From the NCBI GenBank assembly GCA_965223625.1, contig OZ245008.1:1039170-1071169 (forward strand): 32,000 nucleotides of DNA, given 5' to 3'. Below are positions 7,937 to 25,064 of this stretch, piece by piece (the first letter of the stretch is position 1; each line of letters begins with the position of its first letter). Below the pieces are notes generated by a model. The model saw nothing but the letters and a program-made list of their open reading frames with translations, did no database searches and was not told where the DNA came from. Source of the DNA: Nitrospira sp. GTDB lineage: Bacteria > Nitrospirota > Nitrospiria > Nitrospirales > Nitrospiraceae. A program made the translations under genes and the position numbers.

Positions 7937-8019
7937 GGTGCAATGACGGTCATACAAGCCGTTGCATCAGGTGTGGGCGACATGGATGATTGAGGAGACG
8001 ATTCAGGGAAGGAGGATCT

Positions 8020-10437
8020 ATGAGCACCGTCGTACAGGGTGCTGATCTCGTGAAGTGGTTCGAGGAACTGAGTATTGAAGACGTGCCGTCTGTCGGAGGG
8101 AAGAACGCGTCGTTGGGCGAAATGTATCGTGAGCTGGCCGCTAAAGGCGTGAAGGTACCGAACGGGTTCGCCGTTACCGCGGACGCGTACCGCGCCTTCT
8201 TGAAAGAGGCGAAACTCGACGGTACGATCAGGACCATTCTCAAAGACCTGGACACCCACAATCTGGAAAATCTGCGTCAGCGCGGTAGACAGGTACGACA
8301 GGCGATTCTGGGCGCCGTCTTGCCGCTCGAGTTGTCCGAAGCGATCACTGATGCGTACGATCGATTGAGCGGCAGCCATGCGGAACCGGTCGATGTTGCC
8401 GTCCGGAGCAGTGCAACGGCTGAGGATCTTCCCGACGCCAGTTTCGCGGGCCAACAGGAAACATATCTGAATGTGCAGGGCCACCTCGCGTTATTGGAAT
8501 ACTGCAAACGCTGCTTCGCGTCCCTGTTCACCGATCGGGCTATCTCGTACCGGGCTGATAAAGGATTCGATCACTTCAAGATCGCGCTCTCGATCGGCGT
8601 GCAACGGATGGTGCGCTCCGACCTGGCGACGTCCGGCGTGATGTTTTCGATCGATACGGAAACCGGTTTCCGTGACGCCGTGTTGATCAATGCCGCCTAC
8701 GGTCTTGGTGAAAACGTCGTGCAGGGTTCGGTGAATCCGGACGAGTACTATGTCTTCAAGCCGACGTTGAAGCAGGGCTACCGCCCCATTCTGCAGAAAA
8801 TACTCGGCACGAAAGAATTCAAATTGGTGTATGACATCGGCGGCGGCAAGATGGTTAAGAACCTTCCGGTCCCTCCGGGCGAGCGGGCACAGTTTGCCGT
8901 GACGGATGATGACATCCTGACACTTGCCCGATGGGCCTGCACCATTGAAGATCATTACAGCGCGAAGCGGGGAGTTCCAAGCCCGATGGACATGGAATGG
9001 GCCAAGGACGGCCGGACAGGGGAACTGTTCATCGTGCAGGCTCGTCCTGAAACCGTGCAATCGATGAAAAAGGGGCAGGTACTGGAAACCTATCGACTTA
9101 AACAACAAGGGCGGGTCTTGGTCAAGGGGCGTAGTATCGGGGACAAGATCGCGCAGGGACCGGTGCGGGTCATCAAGTCCGTTGAGCAGATTCACGAATT
9201 CCAAGGAGGTGAAGTCTTGGTCACGGATAAGACGGATCCCGACTGGGAACCGGTTATGAAGAAAGCACAAGCGATCGTCACCAATCGGGGAGGACGAACC
9301 TGCCATGCCGCCATCGTCAGCCGTGAATTAGGACTACCCGCCATCGTCGGGACGGAACATGCGACCGATTTGCTCCACGATGGGCAACTCGTCACCGTGT
9401 CCTGTGCGGAAGGCGACACAGGCTTTGTGTACGATGGGCAGATTCCGTTTCATGTCGAGAAGCTTGATGTGAAAGAGATCCGCAGGCCCAAGACCAAGGT
9501 CATGATGAATGTCGGAAACCCACAAGAGGCTTTTGGGCTCTCTGCCATACCGAATGACGGGGTCGGCTTGGCGAGAGAGGAGTTCATCATCAGTACGTAT
9601 ATAAGGGTCCATCCCATTGCGCTGATCGAATTTGACCGATTGGAAGATCAGGCACTGAAGGCTGAGATCAACCGAATCACGGCGGGATATTCGGACAAGG
9701 CCGAGTTTTTCGTCGACAAGCTGGCGCAGGGCGTCGCGATGATCGGGGCGGCCTTTTATCCGAAGGACGTGATCGTCCGGCTCAGCGACTTTAAGAGTAA
9801 TGAATATGCCGATCTGATCGGAGGCCGGCGCTACGAGCCACAGGAAGAGAACCCGATGTTGGGGTTCCGAGGGGCCTCGCGCTATTACGATCCGCGCTAT
9901 CGTGAAGGTTTCGCATTGGAATGTCGGGCGATGAAACAGGTGCGGGATGTGATGGGTCTGACGAACGTGAAACTCATGGTCCCGTTCTGCCGTACGGTTG
10001 AAGAAGGGAGACTCGTCCTGGCGGAAATGGAGCGGCATGGGTTGAAGCGGGGAGAGAAGGGACTTGAAGTCTACGTCATGTGCGAAATCCCGAGCAACGT
10101 GATTTTGGCGGAAGACTTTGCCGAAATCTTCGACGGCTTTTCGATCGGCTCCAATGACCTCACGCAACTGGTGCTCGGCGTGGATCGCGATTCCGAAATC
10201 GTGGCCCATCTGTTCGACGAGCGAAACGAGGCGGTTAAGAAGATGGTGGCGATCGTGATCAAAGCCGCCAAGGCGAAGGGACGAAAGATCGGTATTTGCG
10301 GGCAGGCGCCGAGCGACTATCCGGAGTTCGCCAACTTTCTCGTCGAACAAGGGATTGAGAGCATGTCATTGAACCCGGATGCGGTCATCAGAACGACAAT
10401 GGCGGTGTTGGAACAGGAGAAACAGCGTTCACGATGA
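8020..10437 (+). CDS. ppsA: Phosphoenolpyruvate synthase (pyruvate, water dikinase)
   Basis: ATG 8020 is preceded by GGAAGGAGG. VPSVGGKNASLGEM is the ATP-grasp N-terminus, GGRTCHAAIVSRELGLPAIVG is the phospho-His swivel motif, and SIGSNDLTQL is the PEP-utilising C-terminal motif. The protein is ~805 aa. Confidence 0.92.
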   Translation: MSTVVQGADLVKWFEELSIEDVPSVGGKNASLGEMYRELAAKGVKVPNGFAVTADAYRAFLKEAKLDGTIRTILKDLDTHNLENLRQRGRQVRQAILGAVLPLELSEAITDAYDRLSGSHAEPVDVAVRSSATAEDLPDASFAGQQETYLNVQGHLALLEYCKRCFASLFTDRAISYRADKGFDHFKIALSIGVQRMVRSDLATSGVMFSIDTETGFRDAVLINAAYGLGENVVQGSVNPDEYYVFKPTLKQGYRPILQKILGTKEFKLVYDIGGGKMVKNLPVPPGERAQFAVTDDDILTLARWACTIEDHYSAKRGVPSPMDMEWAKDGRTGELFIVQARPETVQSMKKGQVLETYRLKQQGRVLVKGRSIGDKIAQGPVRVIKSVEQIHEFQGGEVLVTDKTDPDWEPVMKKAQAIVTNRGGRTCHAAIVSRELGLPAIVGTEHATDLLHDGQLVTVSCAEGDTGFVYDGQIPFHVEKLDVKEIRRPKTKVMMNVGNPQEAFGLSAIPNDGVGLAREEFIISTYIRVHPIALIEFDRLEDQALKAEINRITAGYSDKAEFFVDKLAQGVAMIGAAFYPKDVIVRLSDFKSNEYADLIGGRRYEPQEENPMLGFRGASRYYDPRYREGFALECRAMKQVRDVMGLTNVKLMVPFCRTVEEGRLVLAEMERHGLKRGEKGLEVYVMCEIPSNVILAEDFAEIFDGFSIGSNDLTQLVLGVDRDSEIVAHLFDERNEAVKKMVAIVIKAAKAKGRKIGICGQAPSDYPEFANFLVEQGIESMSLNPDAVIRTTMAVLEQEKQRSR

Positions 10438-10489
10438 GCCTGGGAGATGAAACAGGATCGAAACAGCGTGAGCAGAGGAAAGAGAGGGG

Positions 10490-11515
10490 ATGGTAGGTTC
10501 GATGTTCACCGCCTGGGCTGTCTTCGTGGTGAGCGCCGCCGTCATCGTCTATGCCGGTACGAAACTGTCCCGTTATGGGGACCAGATCGCGGATTTGACC
10601 GGCTTAGGCGGACTCTGGATCGGCGTCGTGCTGATGGCGGGAGCGACGTCGTTACCGGAAGTGTTTACGACCGTCAGTGCGAGTCTTCTCGATGCGCCGG
10701 ACCTTGCGGCCGGTGATCTGTTCGGTGCCTGTATGACCAATATGCTGACGCTTGGACTCATCGATTTGATGCATCGGCAGAAACGGGTGTGGCAGCAGGC
10801 GGCCTTCGAACATGCCTTGAGCGCCGGGTTGGCGATGTTCTTGACGGGTCTGGCGGCCTTTTTCATCCTCCTCGGACAGGATATCAAACATATCGGCATC
10901 GGATCGGGCAGCGCCCTCCTATTGCTGTTCTACGTCCTCGGTATGCGCGTCATTTTTAGGCAAGAAGCCGTCAAGCGGCGTCAGCGTGAGCAAGAAAAAG
11001 TGGTCGAAGGCCAAGCGCGTGAGGAGGATAAGGGACCAAGCAAGCGCGATGGGTTAAAGCGAGCAGCGATCGGGTTCGGATTCGCCGCGCTCGGTCTCCT
11101 GATCGCCGCGCCGTTTCTCGCCAGCTCCGCGAACCAGATCGCCGAACAGTCGGGTGTCTCAGCGACGTTTATCGGCACATCGCTCGTGGCGATTACGACC
11201 TCGCTTCCCGAACTCGTCACGGCGTTCGCGGCCGTCCGTCTGGGGGCGTTTGATCTGGCGGTCGGTAATCTGTTCGGGAGCAACGCCTTCAATATGGCGG
11301 CCTTTTTCTTTGTCGACATCGCCTACGGAGGGGGGCCGCTCCTGAATGCCGTCTCGGAGGCCCATGCCATGACCGCCCTCTGGAGCATTCTCATGATGAG
11401 TCTTGCACTGATGGGGATCATCTATCGTGTGGAGAAACGATATCTCCTGATCGAACCGGACAGTTTGGCCATTATCGTGGGCTATTGTCTGGGGCTCGCG
11501 CTCTTATTTCGATGA
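10490..11515 (+). CDS. CaCA-family cation/Ca2+ antiporter (YrbG-like Na+/Ca2+ exchanger)
   Basis: Multi-pass membrane protein with two alpha-repeat motifs, GATSLPEVFTT and ITTSLPELVTAF, separated by a charged cytoplasmic loop. Confidence 0.75.
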   Translation: MVGSMFTAWAVFVVSAAVIVYAGTKLSRYGDQIADLTGLGGLWIGVVLMAGATSLPEVFTTVSASLLDAPDLAAGDLFGACMTNMLTLGLIDLMHRQKRVWQQAAFEHALSAGLAMFLTGLAAFFILLGQDIKHIGIGSGSALLLLFYVLGMRVIFRQEAVKRRQREQEKVVEGQAREEDKGPSKRDGLKRAAIGFGFAALGLLIAAPFLASSANQIAEQSGVSATFIGTSLVAITTSLPELVTAFAAVRLGAFDLAVGNLFGSNAFNMAAFFFVDIAYGGGPLLNAVSEAHAMTALWSILMMSLALMGIIYRVEKRYLLIEPDSLAIIVGYCLGLALLFR

Positions 11516-14292
11516 ACACATCGAGCTCAACGATTCCAGAACAAGAACGGCCGACGGCAGAAATGTGGCGGCTCTCGGCAGAGGATATGATTCGGCAGGT
11601 GGGGGCCGATGCGGAGCATGGTCTCACCGCCGAGGAAGCCCGACGCCGCCTGGACAGCCAAGGTGCCAATGAACTGCCTGAAAGCCCGCCTCCTTCCCTG
11701 CTCTCATTGTTCCTCTCTCAGTTCACCAGCGTCATCGTCTGGGTGCTGATCGGGGCGGCGGTGGTCTCCGGCCTTTTGGAAGACTGGGTCGACTCGGCGG
11801 CCATTCTGGCCATTGTACTGCTGAACGGCATCCTCGGATTCGTGCAGGAATTCCGCGCGGAGCGGTCCTTGGCCGCATTGCGGCGACTGTCGATTGCCAC
11901 AGCGAGAGTAGTCCGTGACGGAACGCTACTTGTGATTCCGGCGCGAGAAGTCGTGTCGGGCGACGTCGTCCTTCTGGAGGCCGGAGACCGTATTCCGGCT
12001 GATGTGCGGCTGGTGTACACGACCAACTTCCACACGCAAGAAGCCTCGCTCACCGGAGAATCCACGCCGGTGGAAAAGGGAGCTCAAGTGATTGATCGAT
12101 CGGACGTGCCGCTGGCCGACCGATCCAATATGGTGTTCATGGGCACGGTGGCTGTATCGGGCAAGGCCCGCGGGTTGGTGACGGCCACGGGGCTGAGAAC
12201 GGAACTCGGGCACATTGCCGCCATGATCCAGAAGGCGGCGGAAGCGGAGCGGACTGAGACGCCGCTCCAGCGACGGCTCGAGCAATTCGGCTACACCTTG
12301 TTATGGCTGGCGCTGGGAGTGGTCAGCGTTGTGTTCGTCTTGGGCTATTTGCGTGGTGAGCCGGTGGTGACGATGTTCCTCACCTCCGTCAGCCTGGCCG
12401 TCGCAGCAGTGCCGGAGGGACTGCCGGCCGTGGTCACCATCACCCTGGCATTGGGCGTGACAAGAATGGTGCGGCGCAACGCCCTTATCCGCAAGTTGCC
12501 GGCTGTTGAAACGCTCGGCTCCGCGACCGTCATTTGCTCCGACAAGACCGGCACGCTCACGAAGAACGAAATGACGGTGACCAAGCTGTTTGTTGGGGAA
12601 CAGGTATTTGACGTAACCGGTGAAGGGTACGAGCCGGTGGGTGAAATTCGTGAAGCGTTCGGCGTGAAGCGCGAGACGATGTCCACGACATCCGATCCTT
12701 CACCCGTCACCCTTGATCCGTTGCATCTGCCCGAAGGGCTTCGTCAGCTGCTGACGGCGTCGGTGTTGTGTAACGGTGCCACGCTCAAGGAAGATGAGGG
12801 GAGCTGGCAAATTTTGGGTGATCCGACGGAGGGGGCCCTCCTGGTTGCGGCGGCCAAGGCCGGCCTTCGCATGGAAGAACTCGAGCCTACCCACCATTTT
12901 CTTGGTGAGATCCCGTTCGATCCTGAGCGCAAGATGATGACGATTGTGCGCCGGTCCTTGGATGGGCCGGTTGCCTACGTGAAGGGTGCGCCGGATGTCC
13001 TTCTCGCCAGGTGCACCCATCGCCTTGGGACGAACGGGACAATCGAAGGTCTGTCAGACTCAACTCGTGATACGGTGTTGGATGCAAATGCGCAATTTGC
13101 CCATCAAACGCTGCGGGTGCTGGGCCTTGGGCAGCGTCGATTGACACACATACCCGATTCATACCATTCGTCGGAACTCGAGCAGCAACTGGTCTTCCTT
13201 GGGCTAGCGGCCATGAAAGATCCTCTGAGGCCTGAGGCGAAGGTCGCGGTACAAGCCTGCCATGATGCCGGGATCGGAACTGTGATGATCACGGGCGACC
13301 ATAAGGATACGGCAGTTGCGATCGCAGAGGAATTAGGGTCGCTGACGGGAGCGAGGCAGGCGCTGACCGGAACGGAACTTGATCGACTCTCCGACGAAGC
13401 GCTGATGAAACAGGTGGACCAGTTTGCGGTGTACGCACGAGTATCGGCCGAGCACAAACTGCGGATCGTCAAGGCCTGGAAGTCCACCGGCGCGATCGTG
13501 GCGATGACAGGCGACGGTGTGAACGATGCACCGGCCGTGAAGGCGGCCGACATCGGTGTCGCGATGGGAATCACAGGAACCGACGTCACAAAAGAAGCGT
13601 CCGACATGGTGGTCACGGACGACAACTTCGCGTCCATCGCTGCGGCCGTCGAAGAGGGTCGCGGAATCTTCGATAACATTAGGAAGACCGTCCATTTTCT
13701 TTTGTCCTGCAATGTGAGCGAAGTGCTGGTCATGCTGTTCGCCACGCTGTTGGGGTTGCCGCTGCCGCTGCTCCCGATCCAGATTCTCTGGATGAATCTG
13801 GTGACGGATGGGTTCCCCGCCTTAGCCTTGGCGGTCGATCCAAAGGCCCCGGATTTGATGAAGCGTCGCCCGCGAAGACCGGAGGCCCGGTTGTTGGAGA
13901 GAGATCGGCTGGTCGCGATCGGCCTCGAGGGGTTGATGTTGAGTGCCGTCGCCCTAGGAGCGTTCGTCTATAGTCTGTACGGGCTCCATCAAGATGTCGA
14001 ACAAGCGAGGACCGTTGCGTTCACCGTGCTGGTCATCAATCAGTTGGTGCATGCGTTCAACTGCCGAAGCGACCGATGGTCGCTGTTTCAGGTCGGCGCC
14101 GGGACGAATCGCCCGTTGCTCCTTGCCTTTGCGCTCTCGCTTGGCATTCAAATAGCCGTGTTGACCGTTCCACCGGTGGCTTCGATTTTTAAGGTTGCCT
14201 CGCTGCCGCTCGAGGATTGGGTGCTGATGGGGGCCACAGGCATCCTGCCGTTTGCCATCATGGAAACGGTTAAACTGTGGCGACGGTCCTGA
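11512..14292 (+). CDS. P-type ATPase, P2 (SERCA/PMR1-like) Ca2+-transporting
   Basis: Motifs present: TGES (SLTGESTPV), PEGLPAV in TM4, the phosphorylation site CSDKTGTLT, the hinge [12 protein letters not shown], and the cation_ATPase N-terminal motif (GLT.EEA..RL...G.N). ATG 11512 overlaps the antiporter stop (ATGA 11512-11515). Confidence 0.9.
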
Positions 14293-14376
14293 CAGTCGCG
14301 ACGGGTGAGTTGCGAACGGGTCGTTGTCGGGAAACCGGAGGGCTATGGCTTTCCGTTGGATGACGCGAGGAACATC

Positions 14377-14730
14377 ATGATCCTAGTCAAAGACTGGTTC
14401 GACATCGCCGGATATGTGGTGGAGGCGGCCGGCGTGCTCACGATCGTCGTCGGTTCGCTCCTGGCGACATGGTGGTTCATCACTCGTTTGACAAGTATAC
14501 CGAAGCTTGAAGCCTATCGAGAATTTCGTTCAGATGTCGGTCGATCGATTCTCCTTGGTCTGGAATTCCTGATTGCAGGCGACATCATTCGCACCGTGAC
14601 TGTGACTCAAACGCTGGAGAGTGTTGGGGTGTTGGTCGTGATTGTGTTGATTCGATCGTTTCTCACCGTCACGCTCGAGCTTGAGATTGAAGGACGCTGG
14701 CCGTGGCAACGGGCTGATATCAGACGATGA
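14377..14730 (+). CDS. DUF1622 family small membrane protein
   Basis: FRSDVGRSILLGLEFLIAGDIIRTV is the block I associate with DUF1622. ATG 14377 (GAGGA upstream) gives ~117 aa, typical for the family. The ORF-track GTG 14305 is an alternative start. Confidence 0.65.
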   Translation: MILVKDWFDIAGYVVEAAGVLTIVVGSLLATWWFITRLTSIPKLEAYREFRSDVGRSILLGLEFLIAGDIIRTVTVTQTLESVGVLVVIVLIRSFLTVTLELEIEGRWPWQRADIRR

Positions 14731-14802
14731 CACCCCACGGGTGCCGACGATCGGTGTAGCGCCGTGTTATTCGCGTTGCCGGATGCTTTGGGGAAGTTGA
14801 TC

Positions 14803-15171
14803 ATGAAGCGTCTGCGAACGACGATCCTCCTTGTTGCTGTGATTCTCGTCGGAAGGTTCGGTACCGGTGTTGCGACAGAGCGAGATCTCGATATCGATGT
14901 CGTGGCACTGAAGAGTCCGGTATCGTCCGGCAAAATGGCCGAATTGGTCATTCAGACGGAGGTCGGCGCGATGTGTCTTATCAACGCATGGCCCGAGGTG
15001 CAGCCGTCGCAGCGTGCCCACCTGTCCGGAAAGACGGTCCACGGAAAGGGGCGAGCCACCTGGTCGTGGCCGATTCCGAAAAGCGGCGCCGCCGGTCAGT
15101 GGCAAATCGACCTACAGTGTGCCACGTCTGAGAAAAGAGCAAGGCTCCAACTCTCGTTTGAGGTTCGGTAG
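14803..15171 (+). CDS. Small exported hypothetical protein
   Basis: ATG 14803 gives MKRLRTTILLVAVILVGRFGTGVA, a signal-peptide-like N-terminus, followed by a beta-rich ~100-aa body. I recognised no family. Confidence 0.5.
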   Translation: MKRLRTTILLVAVILVGRFGTGVATERDLDIDVVALKSPVSSGKMAELVIQTEVGAMCLINAWPEVQPSQRAHLSGKTVHGKGRATWSWPIPKSGAAGQWQIDLQCATSEKRARLQLSFEVR

Positions 15172-15283
15172 TGTGGAACGGTCGCTGACGCATGACGCGC
15201 CAGACAGTGGCCTCCCATACCGTCAAAATTCACCACCGCATTGAACTTCGGAGATGAGGGTCGTCTTCCAGTTTTCTGATGAG

Positions 15284-15405
15284 ACGGACACTCGGCCCAG
15301 GACCCCCCCTTGATTGGAGTCCCGGGCCGTGTGTCGACATTCGGAGGGACAGTGGCCCGGGACCCCACCCTGACGTGGAACCCCGGGTCGTGCGTCGACA
15401 CTCAA
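15284..15405. repeat. Tandem GC-rich repeat units (~50-60 bp), each with a CCCGGG-centred hairpin, between convergent genes (3' of amoC)
   Basis: G(N)CGACA(C/T)TC recurs at 15284-15293, 15333-15342 and 15394-15403. Hairpin 1 is GGCCCAGGAC (15294-15303) / GTCCCGGGCC (15319-15328). Hairpin 2 is GGCCCGGG (15354-15361) / CCCGGGTC (15382-15389). The likely role is a bidirectional terminator or REP-like element. Confidence 0.6.
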
Positions 15406-15433
15406 ACAGTGCGTATTTCTCTCTCTGCTTAGG

Positions 15434-16237
15434 TTAGTACCCCGCCTTGGCGTTGGGGTCCACCTGGCTGGGGAACGGATCCAGGATGCTCTTCGGCGCA
15501 TTGTTCCAGATCACGTCCGCCAGGTTCGACATGCGGCTCACGATCTGCGCCGCCACGCCCCCACCGGCCCCGAACAACCCGCACCAGCCCAGCGTCACAA
15601 AGCCCCAATGCAACGGCGCCGCAAACAGCTCATCCACAAACCAGAACGCATGGCCCCACTCGTTGAGCCCCACGTTCGGCAGAATGAACATCGGCCCCAC
15701 CACCGCCGCCACCAACGGGAACGATGTCGCCTGGTTGTACAGCGGCAACCGCGTCTGCGCATACAGGTAGCTCGACACGCCGCACGTGATGTACAGCGGG
15801 AACGTCCCGTAGAACGCCACAATGTGGCTCGCCGTGAAGCTCGTATCTCGGATGATCACTTGGTGCCACGCCGCATCCTGCTCCAGCGTGTAGCTCCCCG
15901 CGTAGTACACGCCCCAGATGTAGCAGGCCAACCACCCCATGAAATAAAAATACCGCTTCAGCTCGAGCCGCGGGTCCAGGTTCGCCAAGTTGCGATCCCG
16001 CGTTACCCAAATCCACCCCACCGACACGGCAAAGAAGGTGGCGTTGGCGACGATGTTAAACCGCCACAGCCCCATCCACACCGTGTCGAACTCCGGCGTC
16101 ATGGAGTCGAGCCCGTGGGAGTACCCGAACGTCCGTTGGTACACCACCCAAAACACCCCGATCGCCAGCATCGAAAACCAGCCGATCTTCGCAGGCCTGG
16201 AGTCATACCAATCGTACCCTCCTGTTTGACTAGCCAT
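15434..16237 (-). CDS. amoC: Ammonia monooxygenase subunit C (AmoC/PmoC family), orphan copy
   Basis: The 267-aa protein is colinear with betaproteobacterial AmoC as I recall it: [91 protein letters not shown] strong RBS (AAGGAGG, reverse complement of 16245-16251) lies 7 nt before the ATG. No amoA or amoB is present in the window. Confidence 0.92.
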
Positions 16238-16583
16238 TGTTAGACCTCCTTTCCCTCATTGAAGACAACCGCTTCTTTGCAAACTTTCTACTTTGGCGGC
16301 TTGTTCATGCCTCCAATTCCAATCCAAGCAAGTTCGGAGTGGGTGTAACCAACACATAGCGGAGATCGCGTACTTACACCGTCGCGACCTGGCTTTCGGT
16401 GAATCCACTCCATCCCATCACTTTCAGAAGCATGGCGTTGTTCTTGGTTATTACTCGATCTTAGCTTCGCAGATACGCCGCCATATGAGAACTAGGGGCC
16501 ATCCTAGGTTTCGTGTCGAAGATCCCTTGAGGGTGCTTCTGCTAAATATACTGGCTGGGTGAAGCCAGTGATCTGTTAAAGTG

Positions 16584-16612
16584 TTGCATAAACGGTTGGC
16601 GGTCACTATAAA
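16584..16612 (+). promoter_or_regulatory. Candidate sigma-70 promoter (TTGCAT-N17-TATAAA) facing the lipoprotein/cupredoxin genes
   Basis: -35 TTGCAT at 16584-16589, a 17-nt spacer, and -10 TATAAA(AT) at 16607-16612. This would give a ~220-nt leader before the ATG at 16834/16840. On the opposite strand TATAGT (reverse complement of 16604-16609) with CTGACA 19 nt upstream is a weaker candidate facing amoC. Confidence 0.4.
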
Positions 16613-16799
16613 ATAGAATGTGTGTGCGATGTCAGCGAGAGAGTGAAGGCTTGGTCTCTTCGGAAGGTTGAACGCTGTCGAATGCCACATTGGGCCTCTT
16701 CTCTAGGGTATGGCGTTTTTCATAGCCGTTCCCTGCGATATGGCTATGATCCCCCGCAAGCACGCTGAGGTCGCGTGATGACTCCGCTTGCCATACCTC

Positions 16800-16829
16800 A
16801 TATGTACATTCAAGATATGTACATTCAAG
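16800..16829 (+). repeat. Perfect tandem duplication of a 15-mer, ATATGTACATTCAAG x2, each unit containing the 8-bp palindrome ATGTACAT
   Basis: Read directly: copy 1 at 16800-16814, copy 2 at 16815-16829. It ends 4 nt before ATG 16834 and overlaps the AAGGA Shine-Dalgarno for ATG 16840. Confidence 0.9.
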
Positions 16830-16839
16830 GACGATGATC

Positions 16840-17262
16840 ATGCTGAAACCCATCGGCGTAAGCCGTATTCTCTTCATCCTCGTATTGACCGGCTGTAGCG
16901 TGTTTTCAAAAGTGGATACGCCGACGCGTGTTCATGATATCCACATCAACGGCCAAGACTCGATTACGCCCCTCGAGCTGTATGTCGCCGTGGGAGAAGA
17001 AATCCGGTGGCATAATCAACTCTCAGTTCCGATTCATCTTGGATTGCTGGGGGTCAAGCCGATCGAGGAAGCACGCTGCGACAAGGGATTCAAGACATGG
17101 TTCGGATCGATTAAGGATATGATTACGATCCCACCGGGCGATTATGTCAGCGTGTGTTTTCTGCACGCTCGAACGGTCCGGTACAATGTTTGGACGGATA
17201 TTACCGACCCCTTCCATTCGATGAGTCCGACGGCAACTATTCATCTGGACGAGTCGGCGTGA
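16840..17262 (+). CDS. Lipoprotein with cupredoxin-like sequence pattern (no complete Cu site)
   Basis: MLKPIGVSRILFILVLTGC carries a lipobox (VLTGC). P.ELYVAVGEEIRWHNQ...PIH and PGDYVSVCFLH resemble cupredoxin strands, but the Cys-His is not followed by a Met. The start is ATG 16840 (AAGGA 8 nt upstream) or ATG 16834. Confidence 0.6.
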   Translation: MLKPIGVSRILFILVLTGCSVFSKVDTPTRVHDIHINGQDSITPLELYVAVGEEIRWHNQLSVPIHLGLLGVKPIEEARCDKGFKTWFGSIKDMITIPPGDYVSVCFLHARTVRYNVWTDITDPFHSMSPTATIHLDESA

Positions 17263-17305
17263 TGGTAAGGGGGATACATTGCCAACCTGGTGTAAGGAGG
17301 AAGGG

Positions 17306-18256
17306 ATGAGGACGTTTGTGCGCCAAATTGTGATCGTCGCCTGTGCCTATGGGGTAAGCCTTGGATCGGCGCCGGACATCAGAGCCTATGAAGAGATTGC
17401 TCTCTCCGACAGCGGATCGCTCTCAGGGACCGTCAATCTCGACGGCAAAGTGCCGATGCCGAAGGGGTACAATCTCACAACCGTGCCGGACCCGGTCTAC
17501 TGTGGGCGTATCTCCGATGGGAGAGGTTGGAGATTGCTGCAGCCTTTTGACGTCGGACAGAAGGGGGAGTTTCGGAGCGTCGTCGTGTATCTTGACGGAA
17601 TCGACAAAGGAAAGCCGTTCGGCGAGTATACGCCTCCGAGAATCGAAGCCGTCGACTGTCGCTTTATGCCGTTCATCAATGTCGTGCGCGATCTCCACGA
17701 TGTCGTCGTCGTCAACATGGATCCTGCCTTTCACGACATTCAAGCCTACGAGACATCGAACTTGGGGCCTCGCGTCTTGTTCAATCTTCCATTGCCGATC
17801 AGCAAACGATATCCGCGTGAGGCCGGGTTGAGCGCGCATTTCCATAAGCATTACGAAGGGGCCACCGTGACTCAACTGGTCAAGATGACGAGAGACCGGA
17901 AGATTTTTACCATGCAATGCGGATTCCATCCGTATATGGAAAGTTGGGCATTGGTTGCCGACCATCCGTATTACGCAGTGACCGACAAGGAAGGACGGTT
18001 CCAGTTCACCGACATTCCACCCGGCACCTATAAGGTGAAAGTCTGGCATCCGTACATCCGGGACGACATCGAGCAGACGATCTCGATTGAACCGAAGAAA
18101 CAGACGAGCGTGAATCTGACGGTTGAGGCACCGACCGGTCGGCTCTATGCCAACCAAATGGTCGAGAATGCCTATGTGCGGTACACGATTACCGAGGACG
18201 TGCAGAGTCAAATCGTACCGACGTTGGAAAAACAACAGATCACCGACAATCAGTGA
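17306..18256 (+). CDS. Exported type-1 copper (cupredoxin) domain protein with C-terminal carboxypeptidase-regulatory-like (Ig-like) domain
   Basis: ATG 17306 is preceded by AAGGAGG, and the N-terminus looks like a signal peptide. VVVVNMDPAFHDIQ supplies the upstream His, and MQCGFHPYM gives C-x2-H-x2-M (Cys codon at 17918-17920), the amicyanin-type T1Cu ligand set. PYYAVTDKEGRFQFTDIPPGTYKVKVWHP is the CarboxypepD_reg-like tail. Confidence 0.7.
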   Translation: MRTFVRQIVIVACAYGVSLGSAPDIRAYEEIALSDSGSLSGTVNLDGKVPMPKGYNLTTVPDPVYCGRISDGRGWRLLQPFDVGQKGEFRSVVVYLDGIDKGKPFGEYTPPRIEAVDCRFMPFINVVRDLHDVVVVNMDPAFHDIQAYETSNLGPRVLFNLPLPISKRYPREAGLSAHFHKHYEGATVTQLVKMTRDRKIFTMQCGFHPYMESWALVADHPYYAVTDKEGRFQFTDIPPGTYKVKVWHPYIRDDIEQTISIEPKKQTSVNLTVEAPTGRLYANQMVENAYVRYTITEDVQSQIVPTLEKQQITDNQ

Positions 18257-18276
18257 TCTGGTCCAGCTAGAACTAG

Positions 18277-19450
18277 GGAAGGTCTGATTAATTCACCGTT
18301 TCAGTCAGAAATTTGTTCCCCCAGTGATGTGCAGCGGCTGTCCGATAAGAATCCGCTGAGCCGGGAGGCGTTTTATAGGGCGCCCCCCCCCGCTAGCCCA
18401 CTGCAGCCCTGTGGGGCTACGCCCGCTATGTTCCCGCCAACAAACGGCGTCGCGCCAGATACAGATTCGTTAACCCGCAGGTGACAAAGAGCCAATTCGT
18501 ATTCTTCACACGCCCTCGGTAGCGGACCTTGGTCCACCCAAAAACGCGCTTCATCACCCCAAACACATGCTCGACCTTGGCCCGCACCTTCGACTTGGTC
18601 CGATTCCGAGCCCGCTCCACCTCACTCAGCGGTCGATGCCGATGGGCTTTTGCTTGGATGAAACTCTTCGCGTCAGGAGCCTGTTGCCAGATCACCTCAC
18701 GTGGTCCACTGTAGGCAGCATCGCCCCAGACTCGCGTCTCATTGCCGTGCAGGAGCTCCGGTAACGCTTGGCTGTCATGCACATTCGCCGCGGTCGCGGC
18801 TACTGAATGAATCAGCTTGGCCCGGCTGTCGACACCCACATGCGCCTTCATGCCGAAGTACCACTGGTTGCCCTTCTTCGTCTGGCGCATCTCTGGATCC
18901 CGCACCTTCTGGCGATTCTTCGTCGAACTGGGGGCACTGATAATGGTGGCATCCACGATGGTGCCTCGGCGGACGGTCACCCCCTGCGCCGCCAGATACG
19001 TGCCGATCCTCGTAAAGAGCTGCTTCCCCAACTCGTGGGCCTCCAGCAGATGCCGAAATTTACAGATCGTCGTCTCATCCGGCACGGGTTCGCGGCCCAG
19101 ATCAATGCCGACAAACTGCCGCATGGCGCGTGAGTCATACAGCGCTTCCTCTACCGCCGGGTCCGACAGGTTGAACCACTGTTGCAGACAATGCAGGCGC
19201 AGCATGCGTTCGATCCCGATCGGCGGACGCCCTGGTCCCTCCGCCTTGGGATACATGGGCTCGATCGCCGCCACCAGGTCCGCCCACGGCACAACGCGGT
19301 TCATTTCGTCGAGAAACCGTTCCCGACGGGTGGGTTTCCGATACGGCTCCAAGCTGGCATCGGCAAAGGTCTGTTGCTTCATGGCCGGCCTCCCATTTGG
19401 TGCTTCGCCATCCCTAGCATGAATCAGGAACGGAATAAATCAGACCTTCC
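18277..19450 (-). mobile_element. Complete IS5-family (IS5 group) insertion sequence, 1174 bp
   Basis: Terminal inverted repeats: GGAAGGTCTGATTAATTC (18277-18294) versus the reverse complement of 19433-19450, GGAAGGTCTGATTTATTC (17/18). Both start with the GGAAGGT typical of IS5. Flanking tetranucleotides CTAG (18273-18276) and CTAA (19451-19454) both fit the IS5 YTAR target. It contains a single transposase ORF. Confidence 0.9.
18426..19382 (-). CDS. IS5-family DDE transposase
   Basis: The 318-aa protein begins MKQQTFADA..EPYRKPTRRERFLDEMNRVVPWADL...GRPPIGIERMLRLHCLQQWFNLSDPAVEEALYDS, the classic IS5/IS4-superfamily N-terminus. DDE-region blocks are present (GTIVDATII, WYFGMKAHVGVD, GDAAY, VEHVFG.MK). 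Confidence 0.93.
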   Translation of the reverse strand: MKQQTFADASLEPYRKPTRRERFLDEMNRVVPWADLVAAIEPMYPKAEGPGRPPIGIERMLRLHCLQQWFNLSDPAVEEALYDSRAMRQFVGIDLGREPVPDETTICKFRHLLEAHELGKQLFTRIGTYLAAQGVTVRRGTIVDATIISAPSSTKNRQKVRDPEMRQTKKGNQWYFGMKAHVGVDSRAKLIHSVAATAANVHDSQALPELLHGNETRVWGDAAYSGPREVIWQQAPDAKSFIQAKAHRHRPLSEVERARNRTKSKVRAKVEHVFGVMKRVFGWTKVRYRGRVKNTNWLFVTCGLTNLYLARRRLLAGT

Positions 19451-19705
19451 CTAAGAGAATTCGCAAAGAGATCCGAGGAATGGCTCGTGCTCTCGATATG
19501 CCGGAGCTTTGGACAGATATTGCAGGGTTCTTCCGACGTTCAGAGTCTCTCGCGGAGAAGGTCAGGCCAAGATCGAGAAGAGGTCGTAAAAAGAAGAAAT
19601 AGATCAGGGATGTTCGAGCTGTGTAGGCAGATGCCATCAGGCCTAAAAACATGACGTATGCCTGTGAATTGGAGGTCATCCGACGACAAAGGGGAGATCG
19701 CTGAC

Positions 19706-19924
19706 ATGACAGGCAAATCTGAAGCCGTTTCGGGTGGGGAGCAAACGAAACATTGGAACGCCAGCGATCAGAGTCTCCTGTCTGCTACATTGATGGCGAC
19801 GCCAACGCAGCGGATAGCCTGGTTGGAAGAGGCGCTGCAGCTGGCCTATACCTCAGGAGTGTTGAAGCCGAGACGGTTCACCAGCAAGGAAGAGTGGGAT
19901 GCAATGGGTTCATCCCGCGGATGA
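19706..19924 (+). CDS. Small hypothetical protein (72 aa from ATG 19706)
   Basis: ORF 19658-19924. The internal ATG 19706 is preceded by AAAGGGGAG. I recognised no family. It lies in an AT-richer region next to the IS. Confidence 0.4.
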   Translation: MTGKSEAVSGGEQTKHWNASDQSLLSATLMATPTQRIAWLEEALQLAYTSGVLKPRRFTSKEEWDAMGSSRG

Positions 19925-20013
19925 GCGAGTGAGTCAAGAAAAGGTATCCGACCCTATAATGTTGCTCAAAGCGAAACCGCTGAGGCCCATGCTGACGTTA
20001 CCTAGAGGAAAGA

Positions 20014-20424
20014 GTGAAGGTAATTGAAGCTATTTCCTGGTTGCGTACCAAGGTCAACGAGTCCTATGGGGGAAGAATTGTAATCATCTCGACGCAACAA
20101 GCCGGAGATCCAGGTGAGCCTCGCAGAGTCATTGGTGTTTCAATGGATGACTCAGATTCGGAAGTGCACCTCTTGGTGAATTATTCTCCTTGGAACGAAA
20201 CGGTCCGAGCTTCAAACATGACGGTAGATGCTCTCTTGGCTCGTCTTGTTGAACTGCCGACACGGTATGAATCGTATCACCTTGTCTCCGGAACTTGGCG
20301 TGAGCTCGATGAAGAGCACGCGGCTCGCATCGACTGGCCTATAGAGAAAGTTGTGGCCATTATGAACGGAACTTATATTGCTTTTATAGAAAGACGGGAT
20401 TTTGGCTCAGGGAGTGACGGCTAG
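20014..20424 (+). CDS. Hypothetical protein (136 aa)
   Basis: GTG start is preceded by AGAGGAAA. The composition is protein-like, but no motif was recognised. GC is lower than in the flanking core genes. Confidence 0.5.
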   Translation: MKVIEAISWLRTKVNESYGGRIVIISTQQAGDPGEPRRVIGVSMDDSDSEVHLLVNYSPWNETVRASNMTVDALLARLVELPTRYESYHLVSGTWRELDEEHAARIDWPIEKVVAIMNGTYIAFIERRDFGSGSDG

Positions 20425-20537
20425 CGAGGTCAAGATACTCGAGCCGAGTAATGGTGTCGAGAATCTTTATTGGCTGTCAAAGCGTGAGACAAGTGCTGGT
20501 TGTTAGCTGATTACTCGCCTCCTTGCAAAGAATCGAT

Positions 20538-20903
20538 TTATGCTGGGACGAGGTCGAGAGCCAGCTCGGTTTGAACAGGTTGGTTGGAAACAACGGGAGC
20601 TTCGCGACCTTCGATCAGATCACTGACTCGATCGCGGACTCCCTCGGCATAGCGAAGAAACTCTATGCCGAACTGGTTGTCTTTGTGCCAGCGCACGACC
20701 GAGACCTCGACGGCAAGCGGAGATTCTGCTTGGGGCACCTCGAAATGTACGGTGAGATAGTTTCCGGGAGTCAAAGCCACGTTGCTTTGCATTCGGCAAC
20801 CCGTGGCAGAGAGATCGAAAAGGGTTCCCTCTCCGGCACCGTCGTCCGTCTGGACGCTGGCGGAATACCGCACATATTTTCTTGGGCTATTCCGTAGCCG
20901 CAT
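20538..20903 (-). CDS. PilZ domain protein (putative c-di-GMP receptor)
   Basis: R-N-S-P-R (RxxxR) near the N-terminus is followed ~24 aa later by D-L-S-A-T-G (DxSxxG), the two PilZ c-di-GMP-binding motifs. GGAGG lies 5 nt upstream of the ATG. Confidence 0.7.
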   Translation of the reverse strand: MRLRNSPRKYVRYSASVQTDDGAGEGTLFDLSATGCRMQSNVALTPGNYLTVHFEVPQAESPLAVEVSVVRWHKDNQFGIEFLRYAEGVRDRVSDLIEGREAPVVSNQPVQTELALDLVPA

Positions 20904-21141
20904 ACTTGCCTCCGTGCTAATGCCTATATCGGTCTAGCCCTAAGAAACTTAAAAGACTTGCTAGGCATTTTCTTCCCAGTGAGTGCTGCTGGAACAGGTG
21001 AAGGGCTGCTCTCCAGCCATTCCTGAGTCGTCTACAAACGGTTGCGATCGCATGTGGCGTGCTGATCAGTTCTTCACCTCCGGTGGACATAGGGACGGAT
21101 GTCACCGAGCTTGATAAAGAGCGAATGTAGTAGCATGAGTC

Positions 21142-22281
21142 ATGGGGCGAGCTGGCGTCATTTTCGTGTCCCTTGTGCTAGTCCTTGGACTTCCGCTCTT
21201 CGGCGTGTGGTTGGCCGGTGAACCGCTCGGGCGCTATCTAGACTTCCCTCCGCGCACGAATTACATAGAACATGAGCCCTTCTCCTGGCCCGTGTTCATC
21301 GCTCTGACGCTCCTGATCGCTCCGGTAGTTGGACCGATCTTCTCACGGATAGCGAGCACAAATTTTCGTTCGCCCTCCCGTCTAACTCAGCACTCAATAC
21401 TCAGCACACAGCACTGTGAATGGTCATTCCCCTGGTGGGGTTGGCTTGGAATCGGATGGACGGGCTTCTGGTGGGTGCTGGCTTGGACTCGCTTCCCTTG
21501 GATGGCATCGCTTCAGGAACATACGTTCACCCCGCTGTGGCTCGGATATATCTTGACCGTGAACGCCTGTACGTTCGCCCGTACGGGCCGCTGCATGATG
21601 TTCGATCGGCCTCGGTACTTTCTGTCGCTGTTTCCCCTCAGCGCCGGCTTCTGGTGGATCTTTGAGTATCTGAACCGCTTCGTACAGAACTGGTACTACG
21701 TCGGCGTCGGCGAGCCGTCGTCGATTGAGTACGTTGTGTTGTCCACGGTTCCCTTCTCTACGGTGCTGCCGGCCGTATTGGGCACGGCGGAGTTGCTGAC
21801 CTCCTATCCCGCCCTCTGTGCTGGCCTGGATCGGTTTAAGCCTGTTGACCTCCTTTGTGTGAAGCGGTCGAGTTGGTCGTTGTTGATCCTGTCCTGTACT
21901 GGACTCCTCGGCATCGGACTGTGGCCGAATTATCTTTTCCCACTAGTCTGGGTCGGACCGTTGCTGGTGGTGGTTTCGCTTCGGGCGTTGGCCGGGAGCT
22001 CCACGATCCTTTCACCGCTTGCTCGTGGCGATTGGCGAGGTGTGTGGGTTGCGGCACTGGCTGCGCTGCTCTGTGGATTCTTCTGGGAGTTGTGGAACTG
22101 GAAGAGTCTCGCTCATTGGGAGTACGCTATTCCCTTCGTGCATCGATTCCAACTGTTCGAGATGCCTTTGCTCGGCTACGCGGGCTATCTGCCGTTTGGG
22201 CTTGAATGTATAACGGTTGCTAACCTCTGTTTGAGTCGTCAGTTTGCCGGTGGCGTGGAGTATTACCGCTCGCGATCGTGA
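21142..22281 (+). CDS. Polytopic integral membrane protein, Trp-rich, unknown function
   Basis: The 379-aa protein has about 9-10 hydrophobic segments, with repeated FWW/FWE.WNW and EY motifs in its two halves (FWWIFEYLNRFVQNWYY and FFWELWNWKSLAHWEY). No family name recalled. Confidence 0.65.
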   Translation: MGRAGVIFVSLVLVLGLPLFGVWLAGEPLGRYLDFPPRTNYIEHEPFSWPVFIALTLLIAPVVGPIFSRIASTNFRSPSRLTQHSILSTQHCEWSFPWWGWLGIGWTGFWWVLAWTRFPWMASLQEHTFTPLWLGYILTVNACTFARTGRCMMFDRPRYFLSLFPLSAGFWWIFEYLNRFVQNWYYVGVGEPSSIEYVVLSTVPFSTVLPAVLGTAELLTSYPALCAGLDRFKPVDLLCVKRSSWSLLILSCTGLLGIGLWPNYLFPLVWVGPLLVVVSLRALAGSSTILSPLARGDWRGVWVAALAALLCGFFWELWNWKSLAHWEYAIPFVHRFQLFEMPLLGYAGYLPFGLECITVANLCLSRQFAGGVEYYRSRS

Positions 22282-22297
22282 CGACTCTTCATCACGG

Positions 22298-22720
22298 ATG
22301 GCTTGTATGCCGGATCGATACCTTCTCAAACTCCTTGGAGTCATTGCGCTTCTGAATGTTCTGCATCTCGTCGACCATGTTCTCCGTGGGGATTTTCACT
22401 GGCCAATCGATGAGCAGTCGGGTGGGTTTCTCGTCGTGGCCACAGTCATTTTGGGTGGTCTAGCGCTTGGCGTATGGTTTTATCGAGCAGGCTGGGTGGG
22501 ACCACGGTTTTGGGCGATTGTCGGAGTGCTGGGGGTAGGACTCGGTTGGTTCTCGCATTTCAGTCCGATGACTGACCAGCCTGTGTCGGTTATCTACCAG
22601 GGGTATGCTAAGCCATGGGCAGGAGCCTTGGCGGTCGGTTCTTTATTTCTGCTCATGTTGTCTGTGTTGGGAGCAACGGTGTACGCAGGGTATCTGTGGA
22701 AGCGAGAGCGTTCGTCCTAA
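22298..22720 (+). CDS. Small 4-TM membrane protein
   Basis: ATG 22298 lies 17 nt after the upstream stop. Four hydrophobic helices are present, with a His-rich loop HLVDHVLRGDFHW. The ORF-track start at 22244 would overlap the upstream gene. Confidence 0.55.
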   Translation: MACMPDRYLLKLLGVIALLNVLHLVDHVLRGDFHWPIDEQSGGFLVVATVILGGLALGVWFYRAGWVGPRFWAIVGVLGVGLGWFSHFSPMTDQPVSVIYQGYAKPWAGALAVGSLFLLMLSVLGATVYAGYLWKRERSS

Positions 22721-22740
22721 CCGGGCAAAGCGGCGAGCTT

Positions 22741-24028: not shown

Positions 24029-24035
24029 AAGGGTA

Positions 24036-25059: not shown

Positions 25060-25064
25060 CTGGG

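Follow-up and report, generated by a model that had tools for sequence, protein, structure and literature searches.

A non-operonal amoC under purifying selection in comammox Nitrospira and its likely role as a spare subunit gene

Why does a nitrifier keep a gene for the C subunit of ammonia monooxygenase (AMO) apart from the genes for the other two subunits? The question arises from a 32-kb window (the whole stretch of 32,000 nucleotides analysed here), in which the original prediction recognised a stand-alone amoC and judged a complete ammonia oxidiser (comammox) of the genus Nitrospira to be a better fit as its host than the classical ammonia oxidisers. As an observation the orphan gene is correct but ordinary; all comammox genomes are described as having at least one non-operonal amoC (PMC6311188), annotation pipelines would all call the gene amoC, and its weight as a discovery is small. 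What bears on the reason why nitrifiers keep spare C subunits is its apparently old, fixed site, the purifying selection on it, a private upstream element, its absence from some relatives, and the linkage of other copies to ftsH.

The identity of the gene could be established in full. The 267-aa reading frame, described in the original prediction as AmoC-like with a strong ribosome-binding site but without mention of its strand (minus), matches the Pfam family AmoC (PF04896) over profile positions 12-244 of 245 (E 1.5e-104, 349 bits against a cut-off of 26.7), scores 338 bits with TIGR03078 (cut-off 280.6), and reaches 339 bits with the NCBIfam equivalog for bacterial AmoC (AmoC_BACT, NF041641; cut-off 319); it is thus a full-length member of the AmoC/PmoC family that lies closer to AmoC than to PmoC. 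The best PDB matches are the AmoC chains 9pxf, 9leg, and 9cl6 (E 1e-110 to 1e-114), with PmoC chains matching more weakly over residues ~20-237 (E 1e-59 to 1e-65). All six metal ligands are kept at the right spacing, D121-x3-H125-x12-H138 for CuC and N192-x3-H196-x13-H210 for CuD. An alignment of residues 26-223 to 1yew_C 60-258 (offset 34-35) maps them to the known ligands, which from the pMMO structure literature we take to be D156/H160/H173 (CuC) and N227/H231/H245 (CuD) in the M. capsulatus 1yew numbering. The sequence AAAGGAGG at the ribosome-binding site is kept also in two related loci (L013 and L080), and an exact look-up of the 267-aa protein found no identical entry on record; metagenome contigs, searched for an exact 39-nt match, gave none either.

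Both the protein and its surroundings belong to Nitrospira. The best database matches of the AmoC are 91-98% identical, and every named one is from Nitrospira; the AmoC of beta-proteobacterial ammonia oxidisers (beta-AOB) form the sister group at 58-65% identity. The protein comparison proposed with the original prediction, run here as a neighbour-joining distance tree with no bootstrap, places the protein among clade-A comammox AmoC, an assignment that rests on the AmoC grouping and the Nitrospira host, since formal clades are assigned by amoA phylogeny and the window is without amoA. In this tree it adjoins the beta-AOB AmoC and groups with RCA "Rifle_cladeA" (L050, L063) and with the hot-spring MAGs L010 and L012, which have been described as clade A (PMC10284858), separate from a cluster of ~75% identity; gammaproteobacterial sequences fall outside the group of Nitrospira and beta-AOB. 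A grouping with the PmoC of methanotrophs is contradicted by the distance in the tree and by the PDB matches (E 1e-65 for PmoC versus 1e-114 for AmoC). The flanking genes tell the same story, trpS, ppsA, and the P-type ATPase gene having been put forward for such placing from the start: against the Nitrospira MAG CBDCWN01, PpsA is 94%, the ATPase 92%, and NaCaX 96% identical, TrpS is 91-94% identical to Nitrospira sp., and both ends of the window are Nitrospira. The comammox reading is therefore supported by the AmoC matches and the flanks alike, and the gene has some value as a marker, in that a contig with rTCA-type genes and amoC is assignable to a complete ammonia oxidiser. The source genome presumably encodes amoAB, hao, and nxr, to judge from a relative 88% identical in nucleotide sequence.

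That relative is a Nitrospira MAG, a 4.0-Mb contig of which is syntenic with ~13 kb of the window and carries the orphan amoC too, in the corresponding position (L001, 98% aa identity). Its set of amoC genes further comprises an amoCAB operon (L005, whose AmoA and AmoB match their Pfam families), a pair of amoC and amoA (L009), and two other orphans (L002 and L003); across the comammox loci that we fetched, amoC is not followed by amoA in 55 of the 81 copies. Within the window the orphan status that had been claimed for the gene stands: tblastn with the AmoA and AmoB of L005 gave no match in the 32 kb (E>1), nor did the AmoA and AmoB Pfam families match any of the scanned window ORFs of at least 120 aa. 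The gene is monocistronic, with orf135 and a DUF1622 gene convergent and orf142 divergent. The remaining neighbours named in the original prediction (2-oxoacid:ferredoxin oxidoreductase subunits, PpsA, TreT, P-type ATPase, TrpS, and an IS5-family transposase) were all recovered with Pfam and NCBIfam.

The prospect that the gene is an exact duplicate of an operonic amoC, which had been raised beforehand, is not borne out. Among operonic AmoC, that of the closest genome (L005) shows 96.6% identity to the protein and that of LAS72 (L006) 96.2%; the protein shares with L001 a 3-aa N-terminal deletion (YDWYD versus YDISQWYD) and the residues S22, T52, R90, and A104, and it has an upstream region of its own, similarity to the paralogs stopping ~20 nt or less upstream of the ATG. 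The AmoC of L013 groups with copies of other genomes and not with the window and L001.

Table 1. Position of amoC and of the features around it in the window
Feature	Position	Strand	Remarks
DUF1622 membrane-protein gene	14305..14730	+	Convergent with amoC; PF07784, E 1.6e-21; 92% aa identity in L001, same place
~2.2-kb segment: DUF1622 gene, orf135, amoC, boxB	14345..16566	.	Occurs in some close relatives with these flanks, missing from others
orf135, predicted secreted protein	14764..15171	+	Matches no family; not in L001
Two G+C-rich hairpins, 13-14 bp stems, related GGGGTCCCGGGCC arms	15294..15390	-	45-140 nt past the amoC stop; inverted repeat I11
amoC CDS, 267 aa, non-operonal copy	15434..16237	-	PF04896 and AmoC_BACT matches, ligand motifs, positional ortholog
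Ribosome-binding site AAGGAGG	16245-16251	-	7 nt before the amoC ATG, read directly from the sequence
boxB, conserved 63-nt element, AAGGGRTCTTCGACAC..CCTAGG-N6-CCTAGTTCTC..TCTGCGAA	16466..16528	-	229-291 nt upstream of amoC; candidate element
boxA, sigma-70-like promoter TTGCAT-17 nt-TATAAA	16583..16615	+	Points away from amoC, towards orf142/orf316
Divergent two-gene operon orf142 + orf325	16834..18256	+	Resident neighbours, outside the amoC unit
IS5-family insertion sequence, transposase 18426-19382	18276..19451	-	~19-21-nt terminal inverted repeats; transpos_IS5_4, 367 bits

The DNA on both sides of amoC had been described as AT-rich and repeat-rich. This is true of the 596-nt upstream spacer, where the GC content is 49% (window, 57%) and 15 bp are perfectly duplicated in tandem at 16800-16829, but not of the downstream spacer, which has a GC content of 60% and carries the G+C-rich hairpins (Table 1). 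These fold with a minimum free energy of -84.8 kcal/mol over 201 nt (z = -3.1), three of the four window-wide matches to the GGGGTCCCGGGCC arm motif fall within them, and their probable function is to end or stabilise the transcript. Terminator-like sites around amoC number three against ~2 expected by chance, none of them on the amoC strand.

Upstream, boxB has 46 invariant columns across the four loci that have amoC at this site (the window, L001, L013, and L080), the surrounding spacer having diverged. It is present only in such loci, being absent both from the corresponding sites without amoC (L083-L086) and upstream of all other amoC paralogs; we regard it as a candidate promoter or operator private to the present copy. 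Its consensus RNA fold is weak (-8.8 kcal/mol) and covariation is negligible (1 of 18 pairs, term -0.56). The sigma-70 scan around amoC returned no promoter-like site, and neither by scan nor by eye could a sigma-70 or sigma-32 promoter be recognised upstream of the gene; there is no convincing CTTGAA-N13-17-CCCCAT site, and boxB of the window contains CTTCGA-N17-CCCCTAGT, the CCCC of which is not conserved in L001, L013, and L080. The hexamers of boxA were read by eye, the stricter rule of the promoter scan having missed them. As a regulatory element of amoC, boxA is ruled out by its opposite orientation and by its presence without amoC: it is conserved in the four amoC-bearing loci and equally in L083-L086, and therefore belongs to the neighbouring operon.

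In that operon, orf142 is a predicted lipoprotein judging by its N-terminal sequence, and orf325 (orf316 when counted from the ATG at 17306, 316 aa) has a CarboxypepD_reg-like C-terminus (PF13620, E 7.5e-9). Homologs number 2007, the named ones all from Nitrospira or Nitrospirota, and the orf142-orf316 pair adjoins the ATPase gene in amoC-bearing and amoC-less loci alike. Searches of PDB and NCBIfam with both proteins were empty, and a structure predicted for orf325, with a copper protein in mind, was too poor for a fold search (mean pLDDT 55). For orf135, no Pfam or NCBIfam family was found, and tblastn against the related loci was likewise empty. Across the whole window, neither Rfam nor tRNA scans found anything. 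To the right of the insertion sequence, a PHROG scan matched only a CHAP/NlpC-like protein and an AAA ATPase of the unknown-function family phrog_8638; these are too few to call a prophage there.

On these grounds we consider it likely that the gene is a functional non-operonal amoC of a clade-A comammox Nitrospira, long resident at its site and under purifying selection, with the role of a spare-subunit gene. Its product is subunit C of AMO, a copper membrane monooxygenase, and bears the membrane CuC and CuD sites; it would need as partners an AmoA and an AmoB from other loci of the genome, such as the amoCAB operon of the closest relative provides. A distinct biochemical role is unlikely for a protein so close to the operonic type; because the protein is nearly identical to operonic AmoC while the upstream region is its own, the contribution of this copy would be regulatory or quantitative, not catalytic. 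Regulated separately, it could supply extra or replacement AmoC when the operon is unsuited to do so, as in recovery from starvation, under stress, or after damage to AMO. Such a role has been demonstrated for amoC3, the singleton of Nitrosomonas europaea. If the copy merely adds gene dosage, the stress-related element of this explanation would be wrong.

A more specific mechanism would make the gene part of an AMO repair cycle, in which a damage-prone AmoC, like D1 of photosystem II, is removed by a specialised FtsH and replaced from spares. Of the 81 related amoC copies, 10 have an FtsH-family gene directly after amoC or amoC-amoA on the same strand, and in one review AmoC is proposed to be oxidatively damaged often and to require replacement (PMC13058606). 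Transcription or induction of amoC alone has also been seen in comammox, amoC being the sole nitrification transcript detected for one hot-spring MAG (PMC10284858) and amoC transcripts of N. inopinata rising after AMO inhibition (preprint 10.64898/2026.09.02.748776). However, no FtsH gene adjoins the amoC of the window, the sole AAA protein of which (25065-26624) is without an M41 protease domain and lies 9 kb from amoC, and L088 has an FtsH 75% identical to the amoC-linked ones but no amoC. When metagenomes were scanned with the linked FtsH, mostly generic FtsH of 57-67% identity and no locus with amoC were recovered, a result that says little about the specificity of the linkage and is slightly negative for it. 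For this gene we regard such a cycle as distinctly unlikely. The wider conjecture, that comammox Nitrospira keep a separately regulated set of spare amoC genes for a cycle of turnover and repair of the AMO copper-site subunit, comparable to psbA/D1 and FtsH, with the present locus as one spare under boxB and others coupled to a dedicated ftsH, fares a little better and is offered tentatively, as rather improbable.

The reading as a long-resident spare-subunit gene also has to be weighed against a recent arrival. The original prediction had taken the nearby IS5 element as compatible with mobility, and the amoC could accordingly be a recent duplicate or a horizontal acquisition carried in as the passenger of that element. 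The IS5-family element, 2 kb from amoC, is intact, its terminal inverted repeat (I2) being 95% complementary; the GC3 of amoC (0.86) is unlike that of its neighbours (0.61-0.72); of the relatives with identical flanks, some have amoC and others lack it; and transposases adjoin amoCAB in N. inopinata and RCB (PMC6852473). Against this, L001, L080, and the more distant L013 have amoC at the same site without the IS, which is absent also from L083 and L085. The IS sits on the far side of the resident orf142-orf316 operon, at a synteny break of its own, past which L001, L080, L083, and L085 carry Hydrolase_3, GT2, and ABC transporter genes not found in the window; and as a single IS5 with a resident operon between it and amoC, it does not form a composite transposon. 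The high GC3 is found in all comammox amoC copies and fits the codon bias of a highly expressed gene. The occurrence of boxB in all four amoC-bearing loci argues for a single old origin, and carriage by the IS, largely refuted by the orthologous loci, is in our view very improbable. The amoC copy instead appears, from the comparison of loci, to have been resident between the P-type ATPase gene and the two-gene operon since before the species of this group diverged.

The amoC-less relatives define a discrete segment (Table 1). In L083/L084 and L085/L086 the ATPase gene (90% and 84% aa identity) is followed directly by orf140-orf316, the homology of the window to these sites ending at ~14344 on the left and resuming at ~16567-16581 on the right; L083 retains ~50 nt past the ATPase stop that match the window, a stretch that may be intergenic. 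Some close relatives may have lost amoC here or never gained it, and the copy may be dispensable; whether it was gain or loss is not decided by the sequence, and only the distribution across relatives argues for loss.

The amoC copy is under strong purifying selection: compared with L001, its dN/dS is 0.048, a value as low as those of the housekeeping neighbours. The notion of a redundant, functionless duplicate in decay, silent or a pseudogene in the making, could draw on the relatives L083-L086 without the copy, on the lack of a recognised promoter, and on the several other amoC copies of the nearest genome, but it is scarcely credible for an intact frame with a strong ribosome-binding site, all six ligands, this dN/dS, and a site kept in four lineages, the flanking genes of which have diverged to 74-92% aa identity.

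Several known systems invite comparison with the long-resident amoC. The PmoC of methanotrophs and the C subunits of hydrocarbon monooxygenases belong to the same Pfam family and have the same CuC/CuD ligand pattern, but are much more distant. The multi-copy amoCAB of beta-AOB evolve in concert (PMC6053082), and here too paralogs within a lineage are closer than distant positional orthologs, and the synonymous divergence of amoC (dS 0.21) is below that of eight flanking genes (0.35-0.56); the similarity among amoC copies is probably kept by gene conversion and codon bias. Unlike in the beta-AOB, only the C gene is multiplied, and paralogs are homologous over the coding sequence and hardly any further; the window and L001 still group as orthologs, and homogenisation is therefore incomplete. 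The original prediction had drawn an analogy with the singleton amoC3 of N. europaea, which according to the account in PMC13058606 (citing Berube & Stahl 2012) is induced by recovery from starvation, heat, and oxidative stress and is 67.5% identical to amoC1 and amoC2. The analogy is partial. Both genes are monocistronic singletons away from the operons, both differ from the operonic copy in their upstream region, and a spare or stress role is proposed (PMC13058606, PMC6311188, as far as these accounts go). The analogy does not extend to a markedly divergent protein, ours being ~97% identical to the operonic type; a sigma-32-type promoter could not be recognised here. In the literature on comammox non-operonal amoC we found no mention of the ATPase/amoC/orf142-orf316 site or of its presence and absence. 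The closest match remains the non-operonal amoC of other comammox bacteria, such as the four copies of Ca. N. kreftii (PMC8115096): organism group and protein family are the same, amoC likewise stands alone away from amoCAB-hao, and nothing essential is different in the gene described here.

The gene under study is the 267-aa ORF on the minus strand in the six-frame ORF list, and its prediction as amoC is borne out. The product matches the Pfam AmoC family (PF04896) with an E-value of 1.5e-104 over profile positions 12-244 of 245, and exceeds the curated cut-offs of both NCBIfam equivalog models (AmoC_BACT, 339 bits with a cut-off of 319 bits; TIGR03078, 338 bits with a cut-off of 280.6 bits). 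The closest solved structures are bacterial AmoC chains (E 1e-110 to 1e-114), with PmoC chains at 1e-59 to 1e-65. Two ligand motifs, D121-x3-H125-x12-H138 and N192-x3-H196-x13-H210, are present, and residues 26-223 align to residues 60-258 of the M. capsulatus PmoC chain 1yew_C. In the numbering of that chain the CuC ligands are D156, H160 and H173 and the CuD ligands N227, H231 and H245; given the offset of 34-35, the six motif residues are their counterparts. With AmoA and AmoB of L005, the amoCAB operon of the closest genome, as queries (identities confirmed by Pfam), no match was found in the window at E <1, nor was any other nitrification family found among the scanned window ORFs of 120 aa or more. 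The gene is thus an orphan for at least 15 kb on each side, as had been proposed.

Features of the window, with positions where these are defined
Feature	Position	Strand	Description
2-oxoacid:ferredoxin oxidoreductase, three subunits, and GltD-like iron-sulfur flavoprotein	348-4945		Pfam/NCBIfam
GalT, TreT, PEP synthase			Neighbours; Pfam/NCBIfam
Na/Ca exchanger, P-type ATPase			Neighbours; Pfam/NCBIfam
DUF1622 protein			Neighbour; Pfam/NCBIfam
amoC	15434-16237	minus	267 aa
Ribosome-binding site of amoC			AAGGAGG, 7 nt before start codon
amoC upstream spacer	16238-16833
boxB	16466-16528		Invariant CCTAGG...CCTAGTTCTC arms, variable 6-nt centre, TCTGCGAA tail
boxA	16583-16615	plus	TTGCAT-17 nt-TATAAA
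IS5-family element	about 18276-19451		Intact; inverted repeats 19-21 nt
IS5-family transposase			Neighbour; Pfam/NCBIfam
CHAP/NlpC-P60-like protein	24220-25059
AAA ATPase	25065-26624		Unknown-function phrog_8638, E 3e-120
TrpS, M50 peptidase			Neighbours; Pfam/NCBIfam

The neighbouring genes named in the original prediction were all confirmed by Pfam and NCBIfam. With each GTDB species represented by a single genome, the scan gave 562 AmoC relatives, and the best 80 of these come, with few exceptions, from Nitrospira, Nitrospiraceae or Nitrospirota assemblies. The top match is L001, the positional ortholog on a 4.0-Mb contig of the Nitrospira sp. MAG CBDCWN01, with 98% amino acid identity in AmoC; nucleotide identity is 88% over 4827-14733, 95% in amoC and 87% over 16817-18257. 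Both loci share the gene order GalT, TreT, PpsA, exchanger, ATPase, DUF1622, amoC, orf142, orf325 (83-97% amino acid identity), where orf142 and orf325 (orf316 if started at the ATG at 17306) form a divergent operon beside amoC. TrpS, towards the opposite end of the window, is 91-94% identical to proteins named only as Nitrospira. On these matches, the contig is Nitrospira chromosome throughout, and the flanks of amoC are neither betaproteobacterial nor methanotrophic.

The 81 full-length AmoC copies of the fetched loci were placed, with outgroups, in a neighbour-joining tree; in it the window AmoC pairs with L001 inside a large Nitrospira group, apart from PmoC and the alkane monooxygenases. 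The same group holds a MAG labelled 'Rifle_cladeA', described as clade A (PMC6852473), and hot-spring MAGs also described as clade A (PMC10284858); our clade A placement is from AmoC, the formal comammox clade definition being based on amoA, which is absent from the window. Nitrospira AmoC sequences of about 75% identity form a second cluster, separate from the window group and probably clade B. AmoC sequences of beta-AOB form the sister group (58-65% identity), with the gammaproteobacterial sequences outside. Taken with the Nitrospira flanks, this supports a comammox Nitrospira carrying an orphan amoC, and not a classical ammonia oxidiser or methanotroph.

Orphan copies are the rule in these comammox genomes. 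The literature agrees: every comammox genome is stated to have non-operonal amoC (PMC6311188), and four such copies are reported for Ca. N. kreftii (PMC8115096). Among the 81 amoC copies, amoA follows 20 and does not follow 55; the other six end at a contig edge. The closest genome has five copies: the amoCAB operon, an amoC-amoA pair (L009) on the separate 170-kb contig CBDCWN010000002.1, and three orphans (L001, L002 and L003); among the best 80 relatives, several further assemblies are represented by three or four copies each. The L009 AmoC is 93% identical to that of the window, with a longer C-terminal tail, and downstream of the pair come ftsH and a serine resolvase gene (L009 9995-15619); the amo genes here may be part of a plasmid or mobile region. 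A second recurrent site places an orphan amoC upstream of fmt (methionyl-tRNA formyltransferase)-rsmB in five assemblies (L002, L007, L010, L012 and L067), hot-spring clade-A MAGs among them, so that orphan copies are confined to a few fixed sites in the chromosome. One amoC of Nitrospira sp. LAS72 (L008:10001-10945) is lengthened to 314 codons by read-through into an unrelated C-terminal tail; it is probably frameshifted or decaying, evidence that maintenance does not extend to every orphan copy. The original prediction had correctly recognised a kind of feature already described in the comammox literature, and the 98% ortholog was already in a public MAG; the remaining interest lies in the private upstream element, the presence and absence of the gene among close relatives, and a linkage of amoC to ftsH elsewhere.

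The window amoC resembles its paralogs over little more than the coding sequence: similarity extends about 15-20 nt beyond it upstream and 0-80 nt beyond it downstream, and the gene therefore has private flanks. L080 (Nitrospira sp. WS110) shares the gene arrangement of the window, as does L013, a more distant locus whose ATPase is 74% identical. Two relatives (L083/L084 and L085/L086) have the same flanks and lack both amoC and the DUF1622 gene: their ATPase (90% and 84% amino acid identity, respectively) is followed after about 450-500 nt by orf140-orf316 (L083:7081-7535, L085:7031-7535; orf316 80-85%). Between GalT and the exchanger, L083 is also without TreT and PpsA. Homology with the amoC-less sites ends near 14344 and resumes near 16567-16581, delimiting a variable segment of about 2.2 kb (14345-16566). 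Related Nitrospira thus differ in whether they have the orphan amoC at this site. Parsimony favours a single old acquisition with later loss, because L013, the most distant member, has amoC here together with the conserved upstream element; sequence alone gives no proof of direction.

The window copy is a slightly distinct isoform. It is 96.6% identical to the operonic AmoC of L005, and so not an exact duplicate; about nine positions differ, mostly in the N-terminal third, besides a 3-aa deletion near the N-terminus shared with L001 (YDWYD versus YDISQWYD). S22, T52, R90 and A104, also common to the window and L001, differ from operonic L005 and L006 and from the other orphans. A dN/dS of 0.048 against L001 indicates strong purifying selection. 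The dS of amoC in that comparison is 0.21, with 0.35-0.56 for eight flanking genes, and its GC3 is 0.86 versus 0.61-0.72 for all neighbours, the IS5 transposase gene and TrpS included. Low dS with high GC3 is what strong codon bias, gene conversion between the copies or the two together would give; in beta-AOB, amo genes are documented to evolve in concert (PMC6053082).

When the upstream spacers of the window, L001 and L013 are aligned, two boxes stand out as conserved while the rest of the DNA has diverged. boxA, a plus-strand promoter sequence, was rejected as an amoC element; it is kept in the amoC-less sites too, and so belongs to the divergent orf142-orf316 operon as its promoter. boxB occurs only in the four amoC-bearing loci of the window type, at the edge of the variable segment, and was not found upstream of any other amoC paralog; it is the leading candidate for a control element specific to this copy. 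As RNA it folds weakly, with no meaningful covariation seen, and no convincing sigma-70 or sigma-32 promoter was readable in it; the window boxB has a sigma-32-like CTTCGA-N17-CCCCTAGT, whose CCCC is not kept in L001, L013 or L080. After the amoC stop codon come two related G+C-rich hairpins (stems of 13-14 bp), which probably mark the end of the transcript or stabilise it. Directly before the orf142 start lies a perfect 15-bp tandem duplication (16800-16829; ATATGTACATTCAAG twice), each unit holding the palindrome ATGTACAT and the second supplying an AAGGA ribosome-binding site; in L085 there is one related unit, GTGCATTCAAGGA. Of the AT-rich, repeat-rich DNA predicted on both sides of amoC, the upstream part stands (49% GC versus 57% for the window, with the tandem duplication), whereas the downstream DNA has 60% GC.

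The proposed connection between the IS5 element and amoC mobility finds no support. The element lies beyond the resident orf142-orf316 operon, not adjoining amoC, and exactly where synteny with L001, L080, L083 and L085 ends. In those four loci orf316 is followed by a Hydrolase_3 gene, a glycosyltransferase, a channel and an ABC transporter (82-92% mutual nucleotide identity), none of which is in the window; the element is thus the sign of a separate rearrangement or insertion to the right, with nothing linking it to amoC. There, within 19452-27500, come about 8 kb of ORFs without a family match and, past these, the CHAP/NlpC-P60-like protein, the AAA ATPase and a protein with a faint LysB-like match; this region may be an island or phage remnant. 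The operon itself (16834-18256), a lipoprotein predicted from the N-terminal sequence of orf142 and the product of orf316, is a pair conserved across Nitrospira (2007 orf316 homologs). The invariant orf316 motif QCGFH.YME looks like a Cys/His/Met metal site, and in the Nitrospirota locus L087 (2867-8945) the protein encoded before a 74% homolog has 1645 aa and a faint multicopper-oxidase match, with CopD nearby; the structure model (pLDDT 55) was too poor for a copper-protein fold to be judged from it.

AmoC is one of the three core subunits of trimeric AMO and carries the CuC/CuD sites, currently the preferred location of the catalytic centre (PMC13058606; preprint 10.64898/2026.09.02.748776). 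The window amoC is intact, complete in its ligands, under selection, old at its site and privately flanked. Since so few positions separate it from the operonic protein, its product would enter the same AMO complex, and the gain from an extra gene would be in the timing and amount of AmoC made; this copy could top up or replace AmoC independently of amoCAB. Transcription of amoC only in a hot-spring comammox MAG (PMC10284858), whose amoC on the fetched contig L012 is an orphan, and the rise of amoC transcripts after AMO inhibition in N. inopinata (preprint 10.64898/2026.09.02.748776) both fit a separate supply of AmoC.

For 10 of the 81 copies, drawn from nine or more assemblies, an FtsH-family protease gene in the same orientation directly follows either amoC (L019, L027, L036, L037, L044 and L064) or amoC-amoA (L009, L020, L025 and L033). 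These proteins (about 603 aa; FtsH_ext, AAA and Peptidase_M41 domains; for example L009:12012-13823) are 74-79% mutually identical. A full-text search for amoC and FtsH together found no paper describing the linkage. No FtsH gene lies beside the window amoC, and a 75%-identical FtsH without amoC in the metagenome contig L088 indicates that the linkage is not exclusive; we therefore treat it as a lead and not a finding. It suggests a turnover cycle of AMO subunits like that of D1 and FtsH in photosystem II.

The singleton amoC3 of N. europaea is induced in starvation recovery and by heat and oxidative stress. The predicted analogy with it holds in part: the sequence divergence that defines amoC3 is not seen in a copy so close to the operonic L005, and the likeness between the two genes would be a functional one.
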